Part shown: piece by piece, positions 5,922-54,568 of the stretch
How the letters are laid out: each line of letters opens with the position of its first letter
Position numbering within the stretch: position 1 is the first letter of the stretch
DNA from: Patescibacteria group bacterium
Lineage (GTDB): Bacteria; Patescibacteriota; Minisyncoccia; Phycocordibacterales; JBBTRF01
Length of the DNA stretch: 64,000 bases
Direction: 5' to 3'
Assembly: GCA_038065315.1 (NCBI GenBank)
Contig: JBBTRF010000001.1
Coordinates: forward strand, 392,425-456,424
Position numbers and translations under genes: made by a program
Notes under the pieces: generated by a model
Told to the model about the DNA's origin: nothing
What the model saw: the letters and a program-made list of their open reading frames with translations, nothing else
The model's database searches: none

Positions 5922-6225
5922 TTGCGGGGCCGCGAATTGCACGCGGGCCTCAAGGTTATGCTTACCACTTCGGCTTTCGCCGCACCGACTTGGCTTCGTG
6001 GTCTGGACTATACCTTCTTCCGAAAGATACTCTTGTCTCGTTACGGAAGCCTGCCATCTAGTCTCTACACCTTCCGAGATTTTGCTCGGCTTGGCTCGGT
6101 ATTGCCACCCCTCCCCAAAGTTGAGAAGACGAGGTTTCACCGAATTTGACAAGTTATCAATACCGATTACTCGATAGTGAGCCCTAAAAATTGAGCCTTG
6201 CGAGTTACTGCTTCTCTACCCCGCG
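5922..6225 (-). tRNA. Initiator tRNA-fMet (anticodon CAU) interrupted by a ~233-nt group I intron between U33 and C34
   Basis: 5' exon CGCGGGGTAGAGAAGCAGTAACTCGCAAGGCT (6194-6225) plus 3' exon CATAACCTTGAGGCCCGCGTGCAATTCGCGGCCCCGCAA (5922-5960) give a cloverleaf with the C1:A72 mismatch typical of initiators, loop CTCATAA and a CCGCG/CGCGG T-stem. The intron (5961-6193) ends in G after an exon U and contains GGCAATACCGAGCCAAGC...GAAGGTGTAGAGACTAGATGG, near-identical to the Azoarcus tRNA-Ile group I intron (IC3) core. Confidence 0.7.
5961..6193 (-). other. Group I intron (IC3, Azoarcus-like) in tRNA-fMet
   Basis: Core block similarity to the Azoarcus intron (GGCAA.GCCGAGCCAAGC ... GGUGUAGAGACUAGA); 5' splice after U, 3' terminal G. 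Confidence 0.65.
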
Positions 6226-6327: not shown

Positions 6328-7074
6328 CTAAAGAAACCGCCCCTCCTTCAACACCGTCTCAAACAGCCCGATAATTCTCCGTGCCTCATGCTGAGACAGT
6401 GCAAAATTTGCACCATCATGTGCGATCCTGTTGCGCACCAAATGCGCTTCCCACGCTTTCTGCACGCTCGGAATCGTGTGCTCATTCACCGACTTCAGAC
6501 GATCCGCCACAGTGTCACCAAACGTCCCCATCCCCTTTAGCATGTCATCCAAAATAATATCTGCCTCGAGGATCGCCAAGCGCCAATCGGATTCGCTTGC
6601 TGAACTGACGTTTTCCACGACGGCAGCCCAACGCTCGGCATTACGTGCCTTCTTTTCAATCTCGGCAGACTCGTCAAAGATCGGCAATCCAACGGGAACC
6701 CCGGTCGGCAAATTGGCCGGCCCGCCATGATTTGCACTCGCACCGTGCGCCGCAGCACCCTCGGCTGCCCCATGCTTCTTCCTCGGTGCAGCCCGATGAT
6801 GCCGGCGGATTTCAATCTGCTTCGCTTGCATTCTGGCATAGATGGTACCGACAATAAAGAGGAGGGACAGGAAGATGGAGAAAAACCGTGCCGCAAATAG
6901 TGCGGTCTCAAGCGTTTGTTGATAATCCGCACCGGCAATATCAAAAAAGAAATTGATGATCCAAATGAAGATATCTTCAAACGACAGAGACGGGAGTCTT
7001 GGGATTTGGTCTGTGCTGCTCGCAGTGTTCGCCGAGCTTGCCGCGGCTTGTAAAAAAGAAAACAGAGGGTTCAT
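6328..7074 (-). CDS. Hypothetical membrane-anchored protein
   Basis: 248-aa ORF with an N-terminal hydrophobic segment (IFIWIINFFFDIAG...FFSIFLSLLFIVG) and a Gly/Ala/His-rich linker; no assignable domain. Confidence 0.5.
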   Translation of the reverse strand: MNPLFSFLQAAASSANTASSTDQIPRLPSLSFEDIFIWIINFFFDIAGADYQQTLETALFAARFFSIFLSLLFIVGTIYARMQAKQIEIRRHHRAAPRKKHGAAEGAAAHGASANHGGPANLPTGVPVGLPIFDESAEIEKKARNAERWAAVVENVSSASESDWRLAILEADIILDDMLKGMGTFGDTVADRLKSVNEHTIPSVQKAWEAHLVRNRIAHDGANFALSQHEARRIIGLFETVLKEGRFL

Positions 7075-10449: not shown

Positions 10450-12564
<2,115 letters not shown>

Positions 12565-27405: not shown

Positions 27406-27492
27406 GGAAAGATGGATGAGTGGTTTAAATCAACGGTTTACTAAACCGTCGTCCCGTTACACGGACCGTGGGTTCGAATCCCACTCTTTCCG
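27406..27492 (+). tRNA. Class II (Ser-type) tRNA with apparent anticodon ACU
   Basis: GGAAAGA acceptor, D GAT/ATC, anticodon arm ACGGT-TTACTAA-ACCGT (perfect 5-bp stem forces loop TTACTAA), long variable arm, T-arm GTGGG-TTCGAAT-CCCAC. Confidence 0.5.
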
Positions 27493-27557
27493 CAGTAAGA
27501 AAAATGTATCGGGAGACCCGAGTGCCCAAAAAGGTCATTTTAAGCTAAAATTAAAGC

Positions 27558-37097: not shown

Positions 37098-37110
37098 AAT
37101 GATGCTGATG

Positions 37111-37183
37111 TGCGCCCGGAGGGAGTCGAACCCCCGGCCAGGTGTGTATAAGACACCTGCTCTACCAACTGAGCTACGGGCGC
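37111..37183 (-). tRNA. tRNA-Ile (anticodon UAU)
   Basis: Reverse complement GCGCCCGTAGCTCAGTTGGTAGAGCAGGTGTCTTATACACACCTGGCCGGGGGTTCGACTCCCTCCGGGCGCA; anticodon arm GGTGT-CTTATAC-ACACC gives TAT. Confidence 0.8.
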
Positions 37184-41339: not shown

Positions 41340-41795
41340 ATGATGATACCCATGGCGCTATTGCAGCACAAAAAAATCGGTCTCGACTACGAAATCCTCG
41401 AGAAGTACGAGGCTGGCGTTGAGCTACTCGGCACCGAGGTGAAGTCGGTCCGCGCCAAGCTCGGCAAGCTCGAGGGCGGCTACGTCACCATCCGCGGCGG
41501 CGAGGCTTTCCTCATGAACACCGAGATCCCGCCTTTCCAGCCCCTCAACGCGCCAAAAGACTTCGACCAGGCTCGTATTCGCAAGCTCCTGTTGAGTAAA
41601 AAAGAGCTTCAGGAATTGGCCAATCTCGAGGCGAAACAAGGTTTGACAATAGTACCTGTTTCGGTGTATAATAAGGGCCGAAAGTTGAAGGTGGAGATCG
41701 CAGTCGTAAAAGGCAAAAAGAAGCACGACAAGCGCGAATCCATGAAAAAGAAGCAGTCCGCGCGCGACGTCGCTCGCGAGTACCGAGATCGTTGA
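41340..41795 (+). CDS. smpB: SsrA-binding protein SmpB
   Basis: 151 aa; KKIGLDYEILEKYEAGVELLGTEVKSVRA...GGYVTIRGGEAFL...KKHD typical of SmpB; immediately upstream of tmRNA. Confidence 0.9.
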   Translation: MMIPMALLQHKKIGLDYEILEKYEAGVELLGTEVKSVRAKLGKLEGGYVTIRGGEAFLMNTEIPPFQPLNAPKDFDQARIRKLLLSKKELQELANLEAKQGLTIVPVSVYNKGRKLKVEIAVVKGKKKHDKRESMKKKQSARDVAREYRDR

Positions 41796-41822: not shown

Positions 41823-42209
41823 GGGGATGCCAGGCATCGACGGAAGAATATCTCTTGAATGTGCGAAGGAGAGCTTCAGTAACTCTTAAAAAGGCTGAAA
41901 ATTCTAAGTGCAAAACTTGGATCTGTAAAGTCTCCGTACTTCGGTGCGGCTGACCTTGCATTCGCTTACGCTAAAGCCTAAGCGACGCCAGCCGGATGGT
42001 TTCCACACCGTTCGGTCCTGACGCTATATTTGTGGAATAGGATCAGCGGAGTCCCGCCGCCGATTCGAGATCATGGGAATAGTGCGTACCGCTTTTCGGT
42101 CGTTTCATAACGGCACGCGCGAATTGCCGCAAGGCATAGAAGCGCCCTACCCTTCGTAGACCCATTCACTAGACTCTTCTGCACGGGGGTTCAATTCCTC
42201 CCATCTCCA
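41823..42209 (+). ncRNA. ssrA: tmRNA (ssrA)
   Basis: 5' GGGGATGCCAGGCATCGACGG... and 3' tRNA-like end GGGGGTTCAATTCCTCCCATCTCCA (T-arm plus acceptor pairing with the 5' GGGGATG); located directly after smpB. Confidence 0.8.
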
Positions 42210-43770
42210 CATCCATAGAGTTTGAAGCCACAAAGTCCTCAAAAAGCCTTACGGCTGCTGGTATTTTATCGGTTCGATAACCGGTGTTTTTGTCGTAATG
42301 CAATTTCTCATTGAAAATGAAGAAGAACGTCTCCTGTTTTTCTCGCGCATCCAAGGAAGTCCATATCTTGTATGGGCTTTTAAGCAGTGTGGATACTTTA
42401 TCCAGAGCGGTTCGATAAGGAATTGTCAGATCGATCTCGCCTACTGAACCCGACCCGAGATTCTCAAGCTCCGTTGAAAGAATTTCAATTTGATCCTCAT
42501 AAGCTCTCTTAGCGGCTTCTACACCTGTCTTCGACGAAGAAATTGCTAGTTTTCCAATGTCCTCCTCTATCGACTTTTTCTTGGTGTTTCGCTCAGCTTC
42601 CTCTTTCTTGAGTTTACCGACTTCGTCTTGCCACACCCCATCAAACACAACCTTTAATAATGCGTCGACTTCTTTCTTAAGAACGCACTTTTTAAGAAGA
42701 ATCTTGAAACGATCTTCAACATCCTTCTTTTTTAGAGATTTTCTGTAAAAGGAACAATCTTTCTTTTGACAAAGATAGTAAGGATGCTTCTTGTTTCGCC
42801 CTTTCGACCAACCGGAAGTAAGATGACTTCCGCATTCATTACACAAAAGAAGACCCCTTAGCGGAAAGTCGTCTCTTACGTCCAATCGCACGCGAATACC
42901 CGAATCTTCCTTGCGCAATCTTTTCTGAATTAGTTCAAAGGTCTCGATTGATATTATCCCCTCGTGTTTACCGAGCCTTCTTTCAACTCCCCGCTTCGGA
43001 TATTCAATATAGCCTGCATAAAACGGATCCTTCATTACAGCACTGATACGGCTTATATACTTATCAGGATTACTACCTTTCCAAAATCCCTTTTTAAGCA
43101 AAAACCGACATACATCGACCCTACTCCTCAAGAAGCCTTTAGCGAACTGCTCGCGTGCCGGCTTGAGCAGTTCCAAGCCGTCTTTTGTGGGCAGAGACAA
43201 CATTCCGTGCGCATGATCCTTAGTCATTTTATAGCCCCTCTTGCTACCATAGGCCCAGTAACCCAATTCCAATCTCGCTCGTTGCTTTTGAGTAACCTGC
43301 CTGTGATTTTGGTGCCTCTCAAGTTCTGCTTGTCCCGCCATAATTAATTCTGAGAAGCGTCCCTCTGGACTTTCATCAAAATTATAGTTCAAACACCTTA
43401 ATACGATATTACGTACCTTGAAAGCAGCTCTTAATTTCAAATGAAATTCCACGTCGCGAGCAAAACGCTTGAGATCGTCGAACACAACAACATATCTCTT
43501 GTCGGGATTTGCGTCTATGTAAGCAAGGAGCTTTCGCATAGCCGGACGATTCATAAAATCACCTCCGCCTGTATAACTATCGGGAAAAGTCTTTGTGTGT
43601 GGAATACCTAATGTCGATAGTTCTTTTACACATCTCCCCTCCTGACTTACTAAGCCTGTCCCCTCAATCTCCTGTCTCTTACTTGAGACGCGTGCGTAAA
43701 CGAGACCCTCCCTGTCCTCGTAAACACTTTTTTGTTGTTGTATCTTTTTGTTTTTTAACATTTTTTTCAA
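42169..43770 (-). CDS. Large serine recombinase (integrase)
   Basis: 533 aa; N-terminal resolvase catalytic domain (YARVSSKRQ ... VVFDDLKRFARD), recombinase domain and Cys-rich zinc ribbon (CNECGSHL...YYLC); C-terminus overlaps the tmRNA 3' end. Confidence 0.85.
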   Translation of the reverse strand: MKKMLKNKKIQQQKSVYEDREGLVYARVSSKRQEIEGTGLVSQEGRCVKELSTLGIPHTKTFPDSYTGGGDFMNRPAMRKLLAYIDANPDKRYVVVFDDLKRFARDVEFHLKLRAAFKVRNIVLRCLNYNFDESPEGRFSELIMAGQAELERHQNHRQVTQKQRARLELGYWAYGSKRGYKMTKDHAHGMLSLPTKDGLELLKPAREQFAKGFLRSRVDVCRFLLKKGFWKGSNPDKYISRISAVMKDPFYAGYIEYPKRGVERRLGKHEGIISIETFELIQKRLRKEDSGIRVRLDVRDDFPLRGLLLCNECGSHLTSGWSKGRNKKHPYYLCQKKDCSFYRKSLKKKDVEDRFKILLKKCVLKKEVDALLKVVFDGVWQDEVGKLKKEEAERNTKKKSIEEDIGKLAISSSKTGVEAAKRAYEDQIEILSTELENLGSGSVGEIDLTIPYRTALDKVSTLLKSPYKIWTSLDAREKQETFFFIFNEKLHYDKNTGYRTDKIPAAVRLFEDFVASNSMDVEMGGIEPPCRRV

Positions 43771-43993
43771 TCTCCTCTCGCACGGCCTTTCGACAAAGCA
43801 TCTCGAGATACCGCAACCTCTTCAATATCTTGTCGTCAGAAATTACCCAATCACCAAGAAGGTCGCGGTAGACATGGGTGGAGACCGTAGTCTCCTTATT
43901 ATCATAGCACCTGTTTTCTTGGCTCATAAAAATAACCTGAGGGTTAGGCCCTTAGGTTATTCGATGACCGATTTAGATTGACTTAAGACGAAT

Positions 43994-44731
43994 CTAAGAC
44001 AAAAGCTTTTTAGGAATTCTCACTGACTGTCTAGTGGTAATAAATGCCCAATCTAGGCTATATTTGAGCAACTTTATCTTAATTTGATAAATCGCGTTGT
44101 AACACCTCTTTTCATCTTGTTTTCCACCACCAAGTCGCTCAGCGATCTCTGAGAAAAACCATTCTTCACCAACCTCTTTCGTATCCTCAAAGATAACCCT
44201 TAGAACATGATACTGATTGGAAAACTTGCGAATTTTAATTGTGTTCCCTTTTATATACAAGAGTGATTTTTCTGGGTCGAAAAAGATGCCATTTGGAGCG
44301 ATTCCAGTATCGCAAGAGTCGCGCTCCACGATCTTCTTCCTCACCGACCTAAGAACCTTTAGCTTTGCTCTGGTCTCCTTGTTGATATTAAAAAGCTCCT
44401 TATCCCCCTCCAAGTTAGGGAAATTTGGTTCTTCGTAGGTGAGTGGGAATGAGCAAACCGAATCCGTCTCGGAAAATATCTCTCTTTCATCCTCAAAAGC
44501 CTCCTTGTCCCTATCAAGAAATTTTCTAACAGCTGCCTTCCATCGAAGATACATTTTCCTAACATCGTGGTAATAGAAGGGGTTGTTCTTCCCATGAGAC
44601 ATGGCAACACCTTGGTTGGTATGGGCAGTTATTGTAATCCCCCGTTCGAACAACTTACCAATCCCCTCTGACAGGTCAGCATCTAAAATACTGGGGATGA
44701 GATCTGGTAATTTTAGCCTTCGTGGGTCCAT
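43994..44731 (-). CDS. Hypothetical protein (island cargo)
   Basis: 245-aa AT-rich ORF, no recognisable domain. Confidence 0.4.
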   Translation of the reverse strand: MDPRRLKLPDLIPSILDADLSEGIGKLFERGITITAHTNQGVAMSHGKNNPFYYHDVRKMYLRWKAAVRKFLDRDKEAFEDEREIFSETDSVCSFPLTYEEPNFPNLEGDKELFNINKETRAKLKVLRSVRKKIVERDSCDTGIAPNGIFFDPEKSLLYIKGNTIKIRKFSNQYHVLRVIFEDTKEVGEEWFFSEIAERLGGGKQDEKRCYNAIYQIKIKLLKYSLDWAFITTRQSVRIPKKLLS

Positions 44732-44972
44732 CAGTAGAAAGAAAGTGATTATATGCTAGTATATAAGCACAATTGAATTGTTTTGAGTAGCCTAAACCAC
44801 ACAAGCAATTGTTGGCATGGCGAAAAGCCCAGTAACGACCAAAAAACCCATCATATGGGGTTGTCGTTACTGGCCGTACAGGGAAACTTGTATGGAGGGC
44901 GTAAGCTCTCACCCATGTGGTGGGCTTTTTGCTACCCAACACTTGGTTAGAAGTTAGACCAGTAACATCTCA

Positions 44973-45305
44973 ATGACCAAAACCGGACTCCGCTATCATT
45001 TATTTTTGGCAGTACACCTAATTGGTATAGTGCTTATTATTTCGGGAATAGCTTTCATATTTCTGAACATGCTCATCATTACGAGTGATGGCGTAAGTCA
45101 TTTTGACTTACTCGGACTACCTATACCCACACCGCCGATTTGGTTTTCCTACATACCCTACTATGGATCCTTACTGGGCCAATTTTACGAAATGTTCTCG
45201 TGGCACGGCCTTGTTGAAATTGTCATAACAGCAACCTTAATTTTCCTGGGTGTTGGCCTAAACAATCTAAAGGTAACTGGGATCGCTCACCGACCGAAAA
45301 AATGA
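44973..45305 (+). CDS. Small integral membrane protein (3 TM; island cargo)
   Basis: 110 aa, three hydrophobic helices; 4-nt overlap with the next ORF. Confidence 0.4.
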   Translation: MTKTGLRYHLFLAVHLIGIVLIISGIAFIFLNMLIITSDGVSHFDLLGLPIPTPPIWFSYIPYYGSLLGQFYEMFSWHGLVEIVITATLIFLGVGLNNLKVTGIAHRPKK

Positions 45306-46087
45306 ATCTTAAAACAACATCAAAAGAGAAACTTCAAGAGCTACTCATTGCTGCCATGAGAGAGGAATTAGAGGACCAAAAAGCTGCCAAAAAAGATCGG
45401 TTTATAAGGGCGGCCAATTTAGCAATGGCGGAGGCCGATGAAAGAAATGCTGAATATGAACGCAACCTAAGAAAGGTCCTGAGTGAGGCAAAAGATAACA
45501 TGCCACGAATGAGTAACAACGGGGCTACAGTGGAGATAAAATTCATTGATTATCCCAATGGGTATATTCGGTATTCCTTATCGTTCCTCCACAGCAAGAA
45601 ATCCTTTCTAAATCCAGAATCACTTACCGAAAACCCCGTCACTTTCTATGAAGAAGGCAAAGAGTCTTTGATCCCCTTCTTTGAAAGCTTCTTGGAAGAC
45701 GAAGTGCAGTCGAGATACGAACCGCTAGAGCCTGATGTAAGGATTGAGGGCAAGAAATTACCGCACCAGTTTTTTAGGTTTACCTTCCTTATCAACGAAA
45801 GTAAGATCAAGCAACCTGAAGAAAATGATGTCGCCTACGGTGGCTTTATTCCCGCCCTGACACTAGAGGTTTCAAGAGTAGAGCTTTGGAAGTTTGTCTC
45901 GGAACTCCGCAAAGATTACGACGACTGGGCACTCAGAAATAACGGTCCGAAGATAAAGCGACAAAGCATAGTGAAATACGTGAAGTTAAGAAAGGTTGCT
46001 GAGGGTGTCATCGTGGCTCTAATCTGGATCCTCATCATCTTCATCTGGAATCAATTCGAACAACTTTGGAGAATATTGCTCTCGTAG
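45302..46087 (+). CDS. Hypothetical protein with C-terminal TM anchor (island cargo)
   Basis: 261 aa; coiled-coil N-terminus, C-terminal VIVALIWILIIFIW helix; co-transcribed with the preceding membrane ORF. Confidence 0.4.
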   Translation: MNLKTTSKEKLQELLIAAMREELEDQKAAKKDRFIRAANLAMAEADERNAEYERNLRKVLSEAKDNMPRMSNNGATVEIKFIDYPNGYIRYSLSFLHSKKSFLNPESLTENPVTFYEEGKESLIPFFESFLEDEVQSRYEPLEPDVRIEGKKLPHQFFRFTFLINESKIKQPEENDVAYGGFIPALTLEVSRVELWKFVSELRKDYDDWALRNNGPKIKRQSIVKYVKLRKVAEGVIVALIWILIIFIWNQFEQLWRILLS

Positions 46088-46158
46088 TTTAACGGAAAAA
46101 CAAGGCCGTTCTAACGCCAAGATGCGGGTTCAATTCCTGCCGAGAGTACTTGGAATTA
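46088..46158 (+). tRNA. tRNA-like element / degenerate tRNA (possible att-site remnant), anticodon region reads UCU if folded
   Basis: GCTCTCG acceptor, D arm GTTT/AAAC, T-arm GCGGG-TTCAATT-CCTGC and 3' CGAGAGT pair correctly, but the anticodon stem has only 3 bp. T-loop core GGGTTCAATTCCT is identical to that of the tmRNA 3' end. Confidence 0.35.
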
Positions 46159-46545
46159 AACAGACTGATTCTTTAGCCTAGCAAGGGTTTCATTGAGATT
46201 CCTGATTGTCTCATCATGGCGGCTATCTCGTTCCGTATCACCTCCATTAAGGAGTTGGATATTTTTCGTGAGCTTATCCAAAGCATCTACAAGATCGCGA
46301 TATTTAGCCTTCCTGACGGTCTTAGTCATATGTTTGATGGCAAGAGTACGTTGTATCTCCAACTCCTCAACAAGGGGCCTTATTGCCTCTTTGTAGGCCT
46401 TTGTACCGGTGACAATCTTCGGTGTTTTAGACACAGACTCAGAATATCCGTGCTTTTTGAGGATTTTGCCCATATTCAATTTCCGACCTTTTCCGAGGTT
46501 TTCCATCACTTCTCCTGCTACGCTTTTGGCGTTTATGCTGGTCAT
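46156..46545 (-). CDS. Hypothetical protein (island cargo)
   Basis: 129-aa AT-rich ORF. Confidence 0.35.
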   Translation of the reverse strand: MTSINAKSVAGEVMENLGKGRKLNMGKILKKHGYSESVSKTPKIVTGTKAYKEAIRPLVEELEIQRTLAIKHMTKTVRKAKYRDLVDALDKLTKNIQLLNGGDTERDSRHDETIRNLNETLARLKNQSV

Positions 46546-46697
46546 CTTAAAATTAATTACTTTGATAAAACGGACTTCAAGCCAACCTCACGAGAAACAT
46601 CAATTAGTGCAATTATAACACTGGAAGTGCCTGATTTTCAGCCACGCCTCCCCGCATTGCAATAACTACCCGAAATCTGTAGGCTGGGTCTAATGTT

Positions 46698-47471
46698 ATG
46701 AAGAAAGGGATCTGCAAAATGTGTCTTAAAAACAAGGACCTCCTCAAGGAATCGCATATTATTCCTAAATCTTTGTATAAGCTCCTAGCCGGGAAAAATG
46801 GCCTTTTGGTCTTCCTGAACTCCAAGCGACCTGAGCTTAAATACAACAGTGCTTACGATAAATATATTTTATGCGCAGACTGTGATGGTGGAATCATTGG
46901 GAAACTGGATGACTACGGGGCAAAATTCTTACACGCTAAATTTCCCAACAAGAGTACACCGCAGACAAGGTATGTAGACGGAGAAAAATGCCTCGTTTTC
47001 GAAGACGACCCAAACTATGACTACACCAAATTTAAGCTGTTCTTACTTTCGATTCTGTGGCGCAGCAGCGTATCTTCCCACCCCTTCTTTAGGGCAGTGA
47101 AACTATCGCCTGACACTAAAGAAATCTTAAGACTAATGATCAAGGATGGCGATGCGGGCAAACCGGACGAATACCCCTGCTTTATACACTTACCGCCAGT
47201 AACGGAAAGCTCTGAGGGACATCATGGCTTTAACATAGCCCACTTGCCTACGATGTCACCAGTCTGCGTCGAAACAGACGGAATAAAAATCTGCAAATTT
47301 ATCATTACGGGTTGCCACTACTATTTTATAATCGACAGGCCCAAAAACATCAGAGTGATACCGAGCATGGAAAAAGATAGGCTTACTATTAGATTCAGCA
47401 CAAGGATGGAGCAAGACATGCTGATCCAACAAATATTCGAAATAATCCGTGATCAAAAAGATACTCAGTAG
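46698..47471 (+). CDS. HNH-like nuclease motif protein (island cargo)
   Basis: N-terminus CKMCLKNKDLLKESHIIPKS...LCADCDG fits the CxxC...H-(I/V)IP...CxxC HNH pattern; remainder unassigned. Confidence 0.45.
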   Translation: MKKGICKMCLKNKDLLKESHIIPKSLYKLLAGKNGLLVFLNSKRPELKYNSAYDKYILCADCDGGIIGKLDDYGAKFLHAKFPNKSTPQTRYVDGEKCLVFEDDPNYDYTKFKLFLLSILWRSSVSSHPFFRAVKLSPDTKEILRLMIKDGDAGKPDEYPCFIHLPPVTESSEGHHGFNIAHLPTMSPVCVETDGIKICKFIITGCHYYFIIDRPKNIRVIPSMEKDRLTIRFSTRMEQDMLIQQIFEIIRDQKDTQ

Positions 47472-48136
47472 TAAAGACCATAGCGCTTGATCAGAGCGAC
47501 AAAATCCTTGTAAGTACTAGAGTGGCGAATGGCTTTTTCTTCGTTAAAATGGCTTCCTACAGATTGTGAGATGTCTTTTGCACCAACCGTCTTATTTAGG
47601 TCAACAAAAGAATTAAATTTCTCTTTACAGTGACAACTCGATGTAGTACTAGACAACAGTCTATTCAGCTCACTATCATGTTGATCTTTAAAATCTGGAA
47701 AGTTCGATTCTAATCCAGCAAAATACCAACTTTCAATCTCCACCTCAACTGGACAAATAAGGACCTCCTTGAATGATACGGAGGAACTGGCCACGGCCTC
47801 CTCAATTAACTTTTTCCTGACGCCACTCTGACTCTGGTCAATATCAAAAAGGACAACTAGATAGAGTTCAAAATCATTACCAAAAAGATAGGTGTGATTC
47901 TTGATGAAAAGAGAAGCAATTTGATATGTATCGGGCTTCTTTAATCTTTCCTTTCCAGCAACCTTACTACCAAGCTGGGGCGGGAAAGGAAAAAACCAAA
48001 AGACTTCATCCTTACTGTATATCGAAGAATTGCCATCCTTAAGGAGCTTTGATTCAAAAGACCTTCTTTCCAACAATCTCGGCAAAAAGTATCTTTCACT
48101 ATCCCCCTCTCCGATTAGCAAGCAGACCTTTTTCAT
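47465..48136 (-). CDS. Toprim-like (DUF4276/RloB-like) protein, partner of the AAA ATPase
   Basis: Start MKKVCLLIGEGDSERYF (conserved Glu), later LVVLFDIDQ (DxD) - Toprim catalytic signature; ATG overlaps the ATPase stop as ATGA (48133-48136). Confidence 0.55.
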   Translation of the reverse strand: MKKVCLLIGEGDSERYFLPRLLERRSFESKLLKDGNSSIYSKDEVFWFFPFPPQLGSKVAGKERLKKPDTYQIASLFIKNHTYLFGNDFELYLVVLFDIDQSQSGVRKKLIEEAVASSSVSFKEVLICPVEVEIESWYFAGLESNFPDFKDQHDSELNRLLSSTTSSCHCKEKFNSFVDLNKTVGAKDISQSVGSHFNEEKAIRHSSTYKDFVALIKRYGLYY

Positions 48137-49509
48137 ACTTCTTTTACTGGAAAAATTCCTTCGATTGTCCCCTGGCAAAATAATTCCGAATTTTTCTTAT
48201 CGGAAATGTACTTCTGCTCCTTCGGTGACAAATTTTCGATGATTGTCTTGTAATTATAAATATTACATCTATTTGCACCCTCTACCACAACGTCTCCGGC
48301 AATAGAAGCCGCGTCCTTTATATAGAATATCTCCTCGGTAGAAAAACCATCCAAAAAATAAGGGGAGTGTGTTGTTATGAAGATTTGAACCCTTCTCGAC
48401 AATGCTCTTAAAACCTCAATAAACTCTATGAGAATAGTCGGATGAACGATCGAATCAGTCTCGTCCAGGAGAAGGACGTGAGGTAATTGATAGCTCCTTT
48501 CCAAGGATCTCAGATTAATCCAGTTAAGTAAGGTAATAAAAAACACCAAAACGGATGTTCCGTTGGAGATTGTCCATATACCATCAGGACCGTTTGGCGA
48601 CGAGACAGACAAAGACCCCTTTGAATTAATCGACACTCCTCGAACTATTCCCTTGGTGTAAAGGTTCAGATCATTAGCAAATTTTTCTTTTATTATTTTA
48701 TTTTTTTCTATATCGCTTATCAAGAAAATAAACTCAGAGTTTTCAAGGCTGGTTTTGTTAGAAGGAACACCTCCATCCTTGAGTCGTCTCAAAGCTTCCT
48801 GATAAATCTGCTCATTCCCTTTGTCCGTTACATATTTATGAAGTGACAAAGCGGTCGTTATGTTACCCATATCGACACTAAGAAACTTCGGTCTAAACTG
48901 GGAAACAACGCTGTTTTGTAAATGTTCAAATATGGCAAAATAATTGTCGCCCTGCGGGTTTTTTATCGGATTCGACTGGATGATATTAGTATCACCTATG
49001 TTTTCTGTCTTCGAAAAATTCTTTTCGTAAACAAGGGTATCCTTCATCGTTACTGCACCTTTTTCAAAAAGAGAGTTATCTTTTGCAAAGGCTGACCATT
49101 TTATCTCACGATCCCTATTTACGTATTGCTTACCAGTAAAAAAGAGTTTGTGTAAGGTCGAGAAGCTATTTTTATCTAAAACTTTTTCGAATATCATCGC
49201 CTCGGTCTCGACACAAAAAAAATCAGTCTGTTCGTCCACCTGATTTCCGCCAACAAAACAAGTTCTTGCACTCTTATTCTCTATTGAGGTCTTCAACGAA
49301 GTAGTTCGAAGCCCTTGACCGATAGTAACATTATTGCCGCCAAACTCTTGAGTGTAGTCAGTTTTAATTTTCAGTGCAGAACTAATTGCCAACAGAAAAT
49401 TGGATTTACCACTTGAATTTCTGCCCGTAAAAACATTAAGATCGCCGAAGGAGATATCGGCCTTACTAATATTCCTAAAGTTCTTAATCTCAATATTTCT
49501 AATTTTCAT
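48133..49509 (-). CDS. AAA family ATPase (AAA_15/AAA_21, OLD/ABC-like) of a two-gene defense-type module
   Basis: 458 aa; Walker A VFTGRNSSGKSNFLLAI at N-terminus, Walker B/D-loop LLLDETDSIVHP and H-loop ITTHSPYF at C-terminus, long coiled middle. Confidence 0.75.
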   Translation of the reverse strand: MKIRNIEIKNFRNISKADISFGDLNVFTGRNSSGKSNFLLAISSALKIKTDYTQEFGGNNVTIGQGLRTTSLKTSIENKSARTCFVGGNQVDEQTDFFCVETEAMIFEKVLDKNSFSTLHKLFFTGKQYVNRDREIKWSAFAKDNSLFEKGAVTMKDTLVYEKNFSKTENIGDTNIIQSNPIKNPQGDNYFAIFEHLQNSVVSQFRPKFLSVDMGNITTALSLHKYVTDKGNEQIYQEALRRLKDGGVPSNKTSLENSEFIFLISDIEKNKIIKEKFANDLNLYTKGIVRGVSINSKGSLSVSSPNGPDGIWTISNGTSVLVFFITLLNWINLRSLERSYQLPHVLLLDETDSIVHPTILIEFIEVLRALSRRVQIFITTHSPYFLDGFSTEEIFYIKDAASIAGDVVVEGANRCNIYNYKTIIENLSPKEQKYISDKKNSELFCQGTIEGIFPVKEV

Positions 49510-49808
49510 GACGATAAGTCTATCACAAAATGAGGCGAAATGCGATAATATTTAGTATTTCAAACCCTAAATTTACGGAAATAGCCTTATTTATCAACGA
49601 ATATCAATTCTGAAATACTCCCACAGAGGTATTTCGAGTGGGTCACTATTCAAACAAAGGATGCAATACGTCACTTGTGTCCCCTCTCCGACTATAAGAT
49701 CAAGCATTCTCAAGGGCATTTTGCAGTGTTAGGCTTGAATTGTAATAGCTCCAAAACCGAGAAAGGTAGGATTTTACTCGGTTCAATGTCTTTCGTGACA
49801 TCTCCACA

Positions 49809-49851
49809 ACAAAAGAAAAATGCCAACACATTGTTGGCATTTTTCTTTTGT
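49809..49851. terminator. Bidirectional hairpin terminator (20-bp perfect stem, 3-nt loop) at island edge
   Basis: acaaaagaaaaatgccaaca-cat-tgttggcatttttcttttgt. Confidence 0.6.
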
Positions 49852-50066
49852 CTATCGGAAGAGATGGGAGGAATTGAAAGCCGGAGCGGATGTGAGGCCA
49901 GCAGGCCGAACCGCGAGGCGGGGTCGCAGAAATTTCCGAGCGTCGGCGAGGAAATTATCAGTGACCAATTCCTCATCGAACATTGACATAGCAGTTTAAT
50001 CATGCTAGCGTAATTTCAGCTCCAAAACGTTGGATCGCTTCCAACATCACACACATCAGTCAAACT

Positions 50067-51424: not shown

Positions 51425-51703
51425 TCAACCCTTCGTCCCGGACTGCTTGATGAACTGGAGCGTCTCGCCGGTCTTGAGGACGCGTTCGTCGTCCACCGTT
51501 TCATCGCCGATCACGGCGAGCATGGTTGGGGCGATATTGAGCACGTCGCTGAGGCGATTGCGCACATTCCCCACCGTCAGGGTCTCGCCATCGCCGAGGT
51601 TGATGCTCTGGCTGTTGGCACCGCACTGGATCTGCACCGCAGGGGCGCTCGGGATCACAGGTGGTTCTGCTGTTGCAGTTGCTGTTGTCGAGTCGTCTGT
51701 CAT
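51425..51703 (-). CDS. ThiS/MoaD-like beta-grasp (ubiquitin-like) protein
   Basis: About 92 aa from MTDDSTTA; C-terminal half ...GETLTVGNVRNRLSDVLNIAPTMLAVIGDETVDDERVLKTGETLQFIKQSGTKG parallels ThiS/MoaD (..G.TV..LL..L......VAV.N.E.V......L.DGDEV.I...V.GG) but ends SGTKG rather than GG; ATG overlaps E1 stop (ATGA). Confidence 0.55.
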   Translation of the reverse strand: MTDDSTTATATAEPPVIPSAPAVQIQCGANSQSINLGDGETLTVGNVRNRLSDVLNIAPTMLAVIGDETVDDERVLKTGETLQFIKQSGTKG

Positions 51704-52410
51704 GTTGCCTTTCTTTGGTTGCCCTCCGGCTTGCGCAGGAAGGCTTGGGTGTTGCCGGTTCTCACATCGAAGAACTGCTCGGAGTATACCAACTTTTGCT
51801 TTCCTGCCAAGACCGCGGAGACCATCCAAAATGCGGAGAGCATATGAACGGCCGCGGCCAGGTTGGTAAAGATCAGTTGAGGCACTCCGCTCGCAGCGAG
51901 CTCTTCGCAGCTCATTTCCGCCGGATTCCGATCCTGCGGCTGCGCGATCTCGGGGTGGAGATGCGTGATCGGCGGCGTCAGATCCTTTCCTCCGTTACGG
52001 AGATAGATCTGAACATTTCCGTCGGTCAGCTCATTTCCACCCGAGATCAGTGTGACCTCCTCCAATTCCCGACAGCGGTCGGACACCAGTTTGCGGGTGG
52101 CATGGTTATCCACCCCCAGGAACACGGTGTCGCCGTTGTTGATCATGAAGAAGATATTTTCTTCGGTCACGTATTCCGATTTTGCTTCGATAGCGAGGCC
52201 GGGGAAATCCCGCCTCATTCTCGCGGCCGTGACCTCTGCTTTGTTTCCGACATCCAAGAATTCTTGGCGGTCGGCGTTTCTGGCTTCGTAAGAGTCGCCG
52301 TCAATGACGACGACCTGGATGTTGCGGTCAGCGAGCGAATCGAGATACCGGCACAAGGGTGATATCAGGTTGCTACCAATACCGCCGAGTCCGATCACTT
52401 TCATGGTCAT
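51700..52410 (-). CDS. E1-like adenylyltransferase (ThiF/MoeB family, minimal)
   Basis: MTMKVIGLGGIGSNL (Rossmann GxGxxG) and VVIDGDSYEARNADRQ (D.D.V..SNLnRQ-like) motifs; about 236 aa; ATGA overlap with JAB gene stop. Confidence 0.75.
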   Translation of the reverse strand: MTMKVIGLGGIGSNLISPLCRYLDSLADRNIQVVVIDGDSYEARNADRQEFLDVGNKAEVTAARMRRDFPGLAIEAKSEYVTEENIFFMINNGDTVFLGVDNHATRKLVSDRCRELEEVTLISGGNELTDGNVQIYLRNGGKDLTPPITHLHPEIAQPQDRNPAEMSCEELAASGVPQLIFTNLAAAVHMLSAFWMVSAVLAGKQKLVYSEQFFDVRTGNTQAFLRKPEGNQRKAT

Positions 52411-53081
52411 AGGAATCCCTTTCTGTGTTTGACGAGGTCGAGCCACTCTTTGGGAACCTCCCAACTATCAATGTCCGGCCAAGCGATCCGATACAAACCT
52501 TCTCGTTCTGGGGTAACACCCTCGAACCAGCCGGTCTCTACGGGAAACCTGTTTCCATTGATCGCTAATTCCGCCGACAGAGAAAACTTTGGATACCGGT
52601 CCACGTTACCAAGGGTAATATGGACCCCATCCGCAGTGTCTTCGTCAGTGTGGTCAGTTTCAGAATGGAAGGCGTGAAGCCGGCCGTGCGAATGAATCGT
52701 TCCGATACAAAGCGCTCCAGGGAGCCGTCCGGAGGCGTCGTAGTCAGCCGTCACTAGGGTCACTTGTTGTTCAGGGACCGTGAGCTGGTAGCCTGTTTTT
52801 TCTCCGTGATGCAGGAGCAGACAAACCTCGCTTTCGGAGACATCGTAGACGGCTTTCGCCAGCTTTAGAGCTTTCGCAATGATCTCCCCAGGCAGCTTCG
52901 GCAAGAGTAATTTTGCTGAAGGGTATTGCACCCTGAGCGCGCACGCTTCGGCCACAGGCACCGTTGCATCTACCCACCCCATCTTCTTACTAACGAAGAG
53001 GCCATTTCTGGCCACGACGTAGTGGGTCGTCTCAGGCGCCGCTGCGGCACCTTTCACTTTCTTGAGATGGATCGGTATCAT
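52407..53081 (-). CDS. JAB/MPN (JAMM) metalloprotease, deubiquitinase-like
   Basis: Start MIPIHLKKVKG; JAMM motif HSHGRLHAFHSETD (H-x-H-x7-S-x2-D) with upstream Glu (ESEVCLLLHHGE); ATGA overlap with upstream gene stop. Confidence 0.75.
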   Translation of the reverse strand: MIPIHLKKVKGAAAAPETTHYVVARNGLFVSKKMGWVDATVPVAEACALRVQYPSAKLLLPKLPGEIIAKALKLAKAVYDVSESEVCLLLHHGEKTGYQLTVPEQQVTLVTADYDASGRLPGALCIGTIHSHGRLHAFHSETDHTDEDTADGVHITLGNVDRYPKFSLSAELAINGNRFPVETGWFEGVTPEREGLYRIAWPDIDSWEVPKEWLDLVKHRKGFL

Positions 53082-54568
53082 TTTGCCTCCTCTGGCTTGA
53101 GGGTTGCGACGAAAGCTTCGTGAGCGGCCGCTATCGACCTCTCCGCATCTGCTTTCATCGAAACCATTGTCTGTTGCACTGCCGCTTCGAGAGCTTTTTG
53201 CAAAGCCTCGTCCGATAACACTTCGTCGATCTGGTCGCCGAGCTGGGTTTTTGCAAAGCCGCACAATTCGCCGACAGCTCGCTTGAATTCCGTGGCAATC
53301 TGAGCCAGGAGTGCCGGTTCAACTTGCCAGGTAGGCACGAGCTTGAAGCAAGCTTCTTTCATCTCATTCTCGACCCTTGCTGCCAATTGAGCAACAGCGG
53401 TATCGAGCGCTGACATGACATCCTTGCCAGTCCGTTCCCTTCTCTGTCCAGCCGTATCAGCAGCGAAATCAGCGCTGATCTTTTTCAGCATGCTCGCGAC
53501 GGTTTGTTTGGCCGGAATCCAAGGGTAGGACAAGCCGAATAGTGAGTCCTTTCTCGAAGCGCCCGCCCAAGCATCGATACTAAGCTGACGATGTGCTTCC
53601 GTGACTAGCTCGGTTTCGATGAATCTGCCGCCCCAAAAACTGGCGATCGATTCTTCCGCCATCACGGCCAAGGATTCCTTAGCCGCCGACGGCGCGAAAC
53701 AGACCTTGAAGTCTCCAAATGTGTTCGGAAGAGCCGGACAGAACAGTTCGTCGTTCAGATCTCGCAATGGAGCCTTCCGAAACAGCACGTATGCCCCATC
53801 GGACTTGCGCCCGCGCAACACGATGAAGAACACGACGTAAGGCAAAGCCAACTGAAACATGTTTGACCGGTCTCCGCCTTGATACATAATCTTCAGTGTG
53901 CGTTTTTGTGGCGGCTGTTCGATGACGAATGTCGTCATCTTGCCTTTCCTAACGACGAAACGCGTGCCCGTAGGCAGCGCAAGCGAATTCACGCCATTAT
54001 CAGCTGAATCCGACGGATCGTCCTGGACAGCCTCTTGCCGAATTCGCAAGACGAGCTCGACAAGGTGCTTTTTTACGGCAACAGCAAAGATCTGCGATGC
54101 TTGCTTGCCGAGCTCCTCCAAGAGCTTCTGACGGAAACCATTCCGATCGGCTTTTACCATTCCGGAAAGGTGCTGCTCATCGAATTTCCGCATGAGTCTT
54201 TCTGCTTCCGTATTTACTTTAGCTTGTGCTTGGCCGATCGGTTTTTCGGCATCGGTTTTGAGTCCCCGGCCTGCTAATATGCAGACGTTTTTAGGGGCTT
54301 GTTTCAATTCGCGCCCGAATGCTTCAAGGGCCGTTCGAATAGGAGCCTTGATCGCATCGGAAAACGAGATCGAGCCGACTTGCCGGAATCCGAACACAGG
54401 CAAGATGCCCATGAAGCGGCCCGGCTTCACTTCTAGGACCAGCTTTTTCAGCATCGGCCCTTGTTTCTGATCTGCAGTGCACACAAGGAAACCCTCCTTC
54501 AGCGACTGCAGACCCTGGCCGAGCGACTGCTCAAACCAATTCCGAATCCGCGTGAGGATACTGAGCAT
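53078..54568 (-). CDS. Large uncharacterised protein with candidate E2 (UBC)-like core, first gene of the E2?-JAB-E1-Ubl operon
   Basis: 496 aa; region ...LALPYVVFFIVL...YVLFRKAPLRDLNDELFCPALPNTFGDFKVCFAPS has the E2 spacing (H/L)PN-x7-C with a central Gly (HPN-like LPN then Cys 8 residues later); helical N- and C-terminal extensions; no other domain recognised. Confidence 0.4.
   Translation of the reverse strand: MLSILTRIRNWFEQSLGQGLQSLKEGFLVCTADQKQGPMLKKLVLEVKPGRFMGILPVFGFRQVGSISFSDAIKAPIRTALEAFGRELKQAPKNVCILAGRGLKTDAEKPIGQAQAKVNTEAERLMRKFDEQHLSGMVKADRNGFRQKLLEELGKQASQIFAVAVKKHLVELVLRIRQEAVQDDPSDSADNGVNSLALPTGTRFVVRKGKMTTFVIEQPPQKRTLKIMYQGGDRSNMFQLALPYVVFFIVLRGRKSDGAYVLFRKAPLRDLNDELFCPALPNTFGDFKVCFAPSAAKESLAVMAEESIASFWGGRFIETELVTEAHRQLSIDAWAGASRKDSLFGLSYPWIPAKQTVASMLKKISADFAADTAGQRRERTGKDVMSALDTAVAQLAARVENEMKEACFKLVPTWQVEPALLAQIATEFKRAVGELCGFAKTQLGDQIDEVLSDEALQKALEAAVQQTMVSMKADAERSIAAAHEAFVATLKPEEAK

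Follow-up and report, generated by a model that had tools for sequence, protein, structure and literature searches.

Genomic islands at ssrA, the gene for transfer-messenger RNA (tmRNA), and mobile elements moved by serine integrases are each well known. The usual enzyme of Islander-type islands that sit in genes for tRNA or tmRNA is a tyrosine integrase; serine integrases are valued as genome-engineering tools. To our knowledge, the Candidate Phyla Radiation has tiny genomes in which few mobile elements have been precisely mapped. In SSV1-type integrases (fusellovirus, Sulfolobus), the integrase gene contains the element's attachment site (attP), a tRNA gene serves as target, and integration partitions the open reading frame (ORF) into two large parts, the enzyme being a tyrosine recombinase of archaeal viruses. 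In mycobacteriophages with a tyrosine integrase, attP reportedly lies in the repressor coding sequence, and integration alters the C terminus and the properties of the repressor, as Broussard et al. are said to have described in Mol Cell in 2013. Here, we report a 7,597-bp island of a groundwater bacterium of the Patescibacteria group (GTDB lineage Bacteria; Patescibacteriota; Minisyncoccia; Phycocordibacterales; JBBTRF01) that its own large serine recombinase (LSR) very probably inserted at the tmRNA 3' end; attP lies within the 3'-terminal part of the recombinase gene, and the cargo is of defence type. The window, i.e., the whole stretch analysed, spans 64,000 nt (GenBank assembly GCA_038065315.1, contig JBBTRF010000001.1, forward-strand positions 392,425 to 456,424). 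Element boundaries, hybrid att sites, target class, split ORF, circular attP forms in the family, and modular cargo were all read from sequence comparison. An initial annotation of the window had proposed an LSR island at the tmRNA 3' end with defence cargo and no prophage, and that proposal is upheld by the att architecture of the family, the in-frame attP, a circular attP form, the junction in a near relative (L061), and the cargo of sister elements.

The tmRNA gene starts 28 nt 3' of the end of smpB. Its Rfam RF00023 match spans 41823-42212 (88.6 bits; E value, 5e-33) and gives a full-length tmRNA ending at attL, with the acceptor 3' strand CATCTCC at 42202-42208, the discriminator A73 at 42209, and CCA not encoded in the integrated state. 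As in Islander-type islands, the target RNA gene is intact after integration into its 3' part, and the same holds at 12 or more related loci. ARAGORN, run on the window, did not call the tmRNA at 41823-42212, and annotation pipelines based on it would overlook the gene and the island target alike.

Downstream, on the opposite strand, lies the gene for the 533-amino-acid (aa) LSR, an arrangement that the initial annotation had recognised and that the Pfam domains and the Rfam tmRNA match confirm. The final 41 nt of the gene (about 40 nt in the earlier reading) read as the T-arm and acceptor strand of tmRNA in reverse complement. The protein has Resolvase (PF00239; E value, 4.6e-16), Recombinase (PF07508), and Zn_ribbon_recom (PF13408) domains, matches the PHROG integrase family phrog_95, and contains the motif YARVSS; R30, V31, and S32 (numbering of the homolog P0110) are invariant among 50 aligned sequences, the window protein being one of them. 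As modelled by AlphaFold, P0110 has long helices (369-444) after the zinc-ribbon strands, and a PDB sequence search with the LSR returned no chain at an E value of 1e-5. It is the only recombinase of the island and is of the serine type, not the tyrosine integrase of the Islander class.

The element lies between two copies of the core TCCACA, at 42206-42211 in attL and 49803-49808 in attR; a search for such a core had been suggested for the locus. At attL, the core is flanked by a B arm, formed by the tmRNA T-arm and acceptor, and a P' arm, formed by the last recombinase codons; attR consists of a P arm (CCAAAACCGAGAAAGGTA..GGTTCAAT..), which partly resembles a T-loop (GGTTCAAT), and the core. 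A displaced fragment of the target 3' end recurs at the far boundary, as in Islander-type islands, in the form of a 10-nt direct repeat, CATCTCCACA, at 42202-42211 and 49799-49808. The same far-side sequence, CCAAAA.CGAGAAAGGTA...GGTTCGAT...TG plus TCCAC(A), is common to nine elements, in which the conserved P arm and TCCAC core stand 3.5 to 7.6 kb from the recombinase gene and mostly have a terminator hairpin after them; all junctions of the family loci have a TCCAC(A) or TCCACCA core in common. Both reconstructed and natural attP sites have dyad symmetry centred on the CC of the core (for example, CCCCACGATGT-GG-ACACAGTGGG on the recombinase strand of L005). The central dinucleotide is probably this CC, at 42207-42208 in attL and 49804-49805 in attR, i.e., C71-C72 of the acceptor stem. 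From a crossover placed there, the element would give the tmRNA only A73 and the trailer; the earlier statement that the element restores the RNA 3' end would thus hold for these and not for the rest, which would be host encoded. The predicted junctions of the window element are ...GTCTTTCGTGACATCTCCACATCCATAGAGTTTGAAGCC... for attP and ...TTCAATTCCTCCCATCTCCACAACAAAAGAAAAATGCC... for the chromosomal site, attB.

The 20-bp-stem hairpin at which the initial annotation had ended the island is a perfect inverted repeat adjoining the attR core, and that right boundary was essentially correct. Terminator-type hairpins also stand 3' of the core in L006, L009, L015, L016, and L017; because a hairpin follows the core in most elements, the one in the window is taken to be the displaced tmRNA terminator of the host. 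On the other side, the nearest relative, L061 (SmpB 95% identical; 84% nucleotide identity over smpB-ssrA), aligns with the window to 42210 and no further, which confirms the left junction. Its tmRNA ends ..CATCTCCACCA, with its own CCA, followed by its own terminator, and it has no family recombinase; an ORF downstream was considered as another recombinase C terminus and rejected for want of similarity. L061 is not a perfect empty site, because its right flank is not syntenic with that of the window. Composition changes between these boundaries: mean GC content is 0.41 in the island (range, 0.36 to 0.45) and about 0.53 in the flanks (range, 0.50 to 0.59), and GC content at third codon positions (GC3) is 0.44 against 0.62 in the host. 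The drop that had been noted is therefore real, but its size (58% to the mid-30s) was overstated; GC, GC3, and AGA use all set the island apart in the proposed composition check.

When attL was joined to attR at the core in nine elements (the window element, L005, L006, L007, L009, L014, L015, L016, and L017), the LSR frame stayed open in every one and gained 30 to 35 codons of a conserved peptide, with the consensus N.LK.YLSRFW.YYQ(T/S)SP.LQ..L. In the window, no stop or frameshift interrupts the 33 codons of the displaced tail segment, and the attP form, an enzyme of 555 aa, ends in ..DVEM followed by SRKTLNRVKSYLSRFWSYYNSSLTLQNALENA and a stop. Pairwise differences in a 16-codon block of the tail number 188 at first, 142 at second, and 325 at third codon positions, a bias characteristic of selection on a protein. 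Given the open frame in 9/9 elements and this type of selection, the P arm is the last part of the recombinase gene; the gene spans attP, and integration therefore exchanges the LSR C terminus. In the integrated form, the last 12 codons (EMGGIEPPCRRV, then the stop) are antisense to tmRNA and stand in place of the tail.

Tails of the attP type occur naturally in two database homologs, P0110 and P0042. The contig of P0110 (L064; 6,534 nt) has ends that overlap exactly by 25 nt, with an ORF continuous over the joined ends, and thus represents a circle of about 6.5 kb. It carries a MerR-like gene, a small ORF, a full-length LSR, a natural attP (P arm, TCCACA, and P' arm), and a type IIG restriction-modification enzyme. 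This circle with its natural attP is independent confirmation that the att sites were correctly rebuilt and that the family is mobile.

A database search with the LSR found 1,662 homologs at E values below 1e-10, the closest being 50 to 60% identical and nearly all from Patescibacteria; close relatives were sought in IMG/VR and GenBank phages and none were found (best match, <30% identity). Among 24 GTDB loci examined, the recombinase gene runs at its 3' end into the 3' end of a tmRNA in 7 and into that of a tRNA in five or more close loci and four more distant ones, and 7 of 9 targeted tRNAs are tRNA-Ala. The C terminus of the protein records the target, '..VEM..IEP..' being antisense to the tmRNA end and '..VDP..FEP..' to the tRNA-Ala end. 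Of the 120 closest homologs, more than 90% terminate in a peptide antisense to a tmRNA or tRNA T-arm, about two thirds of them of the tmRNA type. tRNA-Ala and tmRNA have a common acceptor end (G3-U70, A73). The recombinase clade very likely recognises the T-arm and this Ala-type acceptor end and exchanges strands at TCCAC(A). The target in L014 is tRNA-Ile(UAU). In L015 (about 11540-11740), the recombinase gene adjoins a 3' fragment of tRNA-Ala that lies about 120 nt downstream of an intact tRNA-Ala, an arrangement suggestive of successive events at a single site. Non-tRNA sequence adjoins the recombinase 3' end in L007, L019 (Caulobacter), L022, and L027 but still contains ..GTTCGAA..(C/G)TCCACA- or GTGCAC-like motifs; these junctions could be pseudo-sites or attP-like arrangements.

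The locus resembles the tmRNA islands of tyrosine integrases in its site at the tmRNA 3' end, the integrase gene beside an att site, the displaced RNA 3' end at the far boundary, and foreign composition; it differs in that the enzyme is an LSR, the identity block is only about 6 to 10 nt at the end of the acceptor stem, and A73 and the trailer, rather than a segment from T-loop to 3' end, would come from the element. With serine-integrase elements such as the phages A118, phiC31, and Bxb1 and with SCCmec (CcrAB/CcrC), it has in common a three-domain recombinase and short, apparently pseudo-palindromic att sites, and directionality presumably needs an accessory factor here as well. Unlike those systems, the target is the end of an RNA gene (tmRNA, tRNA-Ala), identity to phage integrases is below 30%, and attP is placed within the coding sequence of the recombinase, whose product integration thereby changes. 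The placement of attP in an integrase gene is that of SSV1, but here a bacterial serine recombinase loses only a C-terminal tail of about 32 aa. The altered C terminus recalls the integration-dependent immunity of mycobacteriophages, although here the recombinase itself is re-tailed.

Under the mechanism that we propose, a small circle would enter by site-specific recombination, its own LSR joining attP to an attB situated at the very 3' terminus of ssrA, with strand exchange at the TCCAC(A) core and probably at C71-C72. The tmRNA would stay essentially host encoded apart from A73 and the trailer, and its native terminator would be shifted to attR. The recombinase ORF would be cut in the same event, its conserved tail of about 32 aa being left 7.6 kb away at attR and replaced by 12 residues antisense to tmRNA. 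The tail swap may alter the activity, stability, or directionality of the LSR, and loss of the native terminator may expose the recombinase gene to convergent ssrA transcription; together, the two would distinguish the free from the integrated enzyme and could add to the control of integration and excision. A conserved C-terminal helix, which the enzyme would have only while the element is free, may provide control of directionality or expression without, or beside, a classical directionality factor. Within the recombinase 3' coding region, a weak hairpin could stand in for the displaced ssrA terminator and may limit convergent transcription into the recombinase gene. The backbone comprises the recombinase gene, the small ORF upstream of it, and a gene for the LOOT small RNA (sRNA), the remainder being exchangeable cargo, and the element would act as a portable mini defence island.

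Within this backbone, the small ORF (orf82) has no Pfam family and is a candidate regulator or directionality factor; another candidate directionality factor is the MerR-like protein of sister elements. Most relatives have a MerR-HTH protein of about 270 aa in the backbone, which the window element lacks. At its place stands orf245, and the possibility that orf245 is a divergent MerR-like backbone protein was rejected (hhalign probability, 0.1%). LOOT (RF03000) was matched over model positions 1-121 at 85.2 bits (threshold, 46.4) and is present in at least eight sampled islands. In each of eight elements, a -10-like box precedes it and a conserved terminator follows immediately, and it is thus a self-contained sRNA gene. 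LOOT also occurs on contigs of viral collections without this LSR (L059, 2928-3050; also L057 and L053), of which L059 encodes a terminase large subunit and a ParB-methylase; it appears to be a general sRNA of mobile elements and phages of Patescibacteria. In L016, a match to the SAM riboswitch (6364-6471, + strand; 47.1 bits; threshold, 44.4) lies between LOOT and the recombinase gene, on the recombinase strand.

The cargo includes orf110 and orf261, which overlap by 4 nt, in agreement with the earlier description of a small transmembrane protein coupled to a 261-aa protein. The earlier call of an HNH-like nuclease, orf257, was not borne out by Pfam, PHROGs, or a further profile search, none of which gave an HNH profile match; orf257 matches only phage families of unknown function (phrog_19960; E value, 3e-24). 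The ATPase of the two-gene module (48133-49509) is of OLD/AbiL type, belongs to AAA_15/AAA_21, and matches HEC-01A, AriA, PtuA, and AbiLi of PADLOC at 1e-16 to 1e-19. Its partner, orf237, has a weak, sub-threshold OLD-like_TOPRIM match over the motif GEGDSE (E value, 0.043) and matches HEC-01B and AbiLii of PADLOC at about 1e-3. Of the ATPase-Toprim defence pair first described, the ATPase is therefore well founded, and the Toprim assignment is weak. An AAA_15/AAA_21 ATPase with an adjacent, overlapping small partner gene is also the layout of PARIS AriAB, AbiL, Gabija, and the OLD family; unlike in those systems, no single model stands out here, and the partner is only weakly Toprim-like. Other elements carry an OLD-like ATPase (L017), restriction-modification enzymes (L016 and L064), an AAA ATPase with a subtilase (L007), or a HATPase_c_3 protein (L006). 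Judged by these profile matches, the cargo varies among elements and is defence-like throughout, and that of the window would likewise serve in defence. Searches of Pfam, PHROGs, and NCBIfam found no capsid, tail, terminase, or portal genes among the island ORFs, and at 7.6 kb the island is too small for a prophage; the initial annotation had likewise decided against a prophage, from the lack of phage structural genes.

Several points weigh against the reading of the island as a mobile LSR element that swaps its recombinase tail on integration. In the AlphaFold model of P0110, the enzyme body has a mean pLDDT of 81 and the tail only 41 to 52, a low confidence that follows from the few aligned sequences that carry the tail; the model was uninformative as to docking of the tail on the enzyme, and a functional role for the tail swap is one that we infer. 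No recombination directionality factor was identified, the central dinucleotide is placed solely by the symmetry of the sites, and the defence function is read from profile similarity with a sub-threshold Toprim partner. No excised circle of the window element was found, and neither an exact search of JGI metagenomes for the predicted attB junction nor the contigs with identical flank proteins yielded an empty site with the same right flank; the comparison with an empty ssrA site that had been suggested thus succeeded for the left junction, through L061, and failed for the right. Every one of the roughly nine contigs with identical flank proteins, from the host population, has the island, so that this copy can at most be presumed still mobile. 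The element may then be an immobilised remnant, integrated as proposed but since fixed in the chromosome, with excision lost and the truncated recombinase a relic. We consider this unlikely: the presence of the island on every population contig covering either flank, the failure to find an attB or attP junction, and the missing MerR-like gene would fit, but the recombinase ORF is intact with its catalytic residues conserved, and both att arms and the displaced tail segment are intact and in frame over 33 codons, where a relic would decay.

A division of the island into two tandem elements, or into an element and an att remnant, had been suggested because of a tRNA-like sequence at its middle. 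A tRNA is indeed present and has a T-loop string in common with tmRNA (GGTTCAATTCCT; 12 nt rather than the 13 first given); it is a callable tRNA-Arg(UCU) rather than a degenerate element at 46088-46158, with a weak anticodon stem (3/5 pairs). A boundary here would agree with that string, with the slightly lower GC content to the right of the tRNA, and with the tRNA 3' ends targeted by relatives of the recombinase. The string is a generic T-loop, however, and the tRNA ends ..GAGAGTAC, without the TCCAC core; neither a P or P' arm motif nor a second recombinase adjoins it, and a single attL/attR pair encloses the whole 7.6 kb and rebuilds one ORF. In the island ORFs, AGA accounts for 33% of Arg codons (19 per 1,000 codons) against 5% in the host (3 per 1,000), and the tRNA, which fits this usage, is best read as a cargo tRNA supporting expression of an AT-rich element. 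The tandem arrangement is largely refuted and very improbable. It is rather doubtful that the element is a phage satellite or phage-inducible island, transferred with the help of a phage and using LOOT in the interaction, but such a role would add to insertion by the element's own LSR and would not replace it. The small size of the elements (3.5 to 7.6 kb), their lack of transfer or structural genes, LOOT on the terminase-bearing phage contig, the matches of orf257 to phage protein families, and the defence-type cargo all suit a satellite, but no packaging, capsid-remodelling, or primase/replication genes of known satellite type were found, and no close relative of the recombinase turned up among phages or in viral collections.

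Coordinates of the island, its attachment sites, and adjoining host features in the window
Feature	Position	Strand	Evidence
smpB (host)	41340-41795	+	PF01668 SmpB match on identical protein
tmRNA gene (ssrA)	41823-42209	+	Rfam RF00023, sequence
Large serine recombinase, integrated form with truncated tail, 533 aa	42169-43770	-	PF00239, PF07508, PF13408; phrog_95
attL	42185-42236		Family comparison; homology with relative L061 stops at 42210
Weak terminator-like hairpin within recombinase 3' coding region	42267-42286	+ (tmRNA strand)	Consensus scan only
orf82, small conserved ORF, upstream of and overlapping recombinase start	43679-43927	-	tblastn matches in 9 family loci, including Caulobacter L019
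orf245, orphan, at place of MerR-like gene of sister elements	43994-44731	-	No family matches
LOOT sRNA gene with own conserved terminator	44789-44934 (RF03000, 44789-44910)	+	Rfam
orf110 (membrane protein) and orf261, orphan cargo	44973-46087	+	ORF list; no family matches
Cargo tRNA-Arg(UCU)	46078-46149	+	ARAGORN; Rfam, 52.1 bits
orf129 (-) and orf257 (+), cargo	46156-47471		orf257: phrog_19960
Two-gene defence-type module: 458-aa ABC-type ATPase and overlapping 237-aa partner	47465-49509	-	AAA_15/AAA_21, PADLOC
Displaced recombinase 3' end (attP-form tail SRKTLNRVKSYLSRFWSYYNSSLTLQNALENA, then stop), also P arm	49700-49802	-	In-frame reconstruction in 9/9, codon-position bias, P0110 and P0042
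attR	49751-49808		Conserved across 9 elements
Host terminator-like hairpin, 20 bp (B' side of attB)	49809-49851		Perfect inverted repeat

Tentatively, the window element may be the founding example of a very large family of mini circular elements of Patescibacteria and some other phyla, each with one defence system and LOOT and with an integrase for Ala-type acceptor ends that acts as a self-reporting switch. Such a family (>1,600 homologs; >90% of the closest 120 integrated at tmRNA or tRNA ends) would be a major route of defence exchange in these bacteria. A limited literature search found no description of a serine-integrase clade specialised for tmRNA and tRNA-Ala 3' ends, of abundant 3.5- to 7.6-kb single-cargo defence elements with LOOT in Patescibacteria, or of attP within a serine recombinase's own coding sequence. 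A clade whose RNA-gene target is conserved and universal and whose protein naturally switches between free and integrated forms offers a testable new handle on directionality control, and the orphan LOOT RNA gains a genomic home as an sRNA gene on mobile elements and phages.

The comparison also exposed a further structured RNA beside tRNA and tmRNA genes. To the right of the host hairpin and outside the island, a GC-rich segment of about 130 nt (49855-49990, + strand) opens with an 18-nt exact inverted copy of the tmRNA end (49861-49878). The same module was found at 16 metagenomic loci (L036-L051), in L009 (5050-5170, - strand), and in L015; tRNA or tmRNA genes of like orientation precede it by 36 to 86 nt, mostly without an island, and in L049 tmRNA, hairpin, and module are contiguous. 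Each copy comprises a stretch complementary to the neighbouring RNA at its 3' end, then an invariant core, and often a second, direct copy of the 3' end, which in L042 and L048 is the only place where CCA is encoded. The core reads GAAA-GCC-GGA-GCGG-(hairpin)-YCGC-GA-GGC-GG-GGUCG-(hairpin)-UGACC, also written GAAAGCCGGAGCGG..CGCGAGGCRGGGUCG..UGACC. Pairing is found in 93.5% of cells (32 to 49% with partners slid), 11 pairs changed on both sides, the observed covariation score was reached in 0/500 shuffles, and several G-U pairs, one of them invariant, are standard only on the tRNA-sense strand. No Rfam family matched the module, and the pairing and the strong covariation, which extends to both hairpins, mark it as an undescribed structured RNA, separate from the island; it could be a small T-loop insertion or a cis-acting 3'-end element. 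The 18-nt inverted copy was rejected as an attR, an inversion site, or a tmRNA pseudogene, as there is no tmRNA-like body and the module occurs without the island. A group I intron with the inverted copy as internal guide was likewise dismissed (no Intron_gpI or relevant Rfam match), and a similar motif beside the window's own group I intron is coincidental.

That intron (Rfam, 5983-6203; 51.9 bits) interrupts the anticodon loop of a tRNA at about 5925-6225 (- strand; 5' end, GCGGGGTAGAG..; 3' end, ..GCGGCCCCGCA), which ARAGORN did not call. To the right of the island, an operon at 51425-54568 (- strand) has genes for a 496-aa protein, a Prok-JAB peptidase, a ThiF/E1-like protein, and a 92-aa protein (by Pfam matches on identical contigs). 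The set is similar to that of ubiquitin-like conjugation systems, of which some have a role in phage defence. Two further tRNAs of the window have unusual anticodons according to ARAGORN, tRNA-Ser(ACU) at 27406-27493 and tRNA-Ile(UAU) at 37110-37183.

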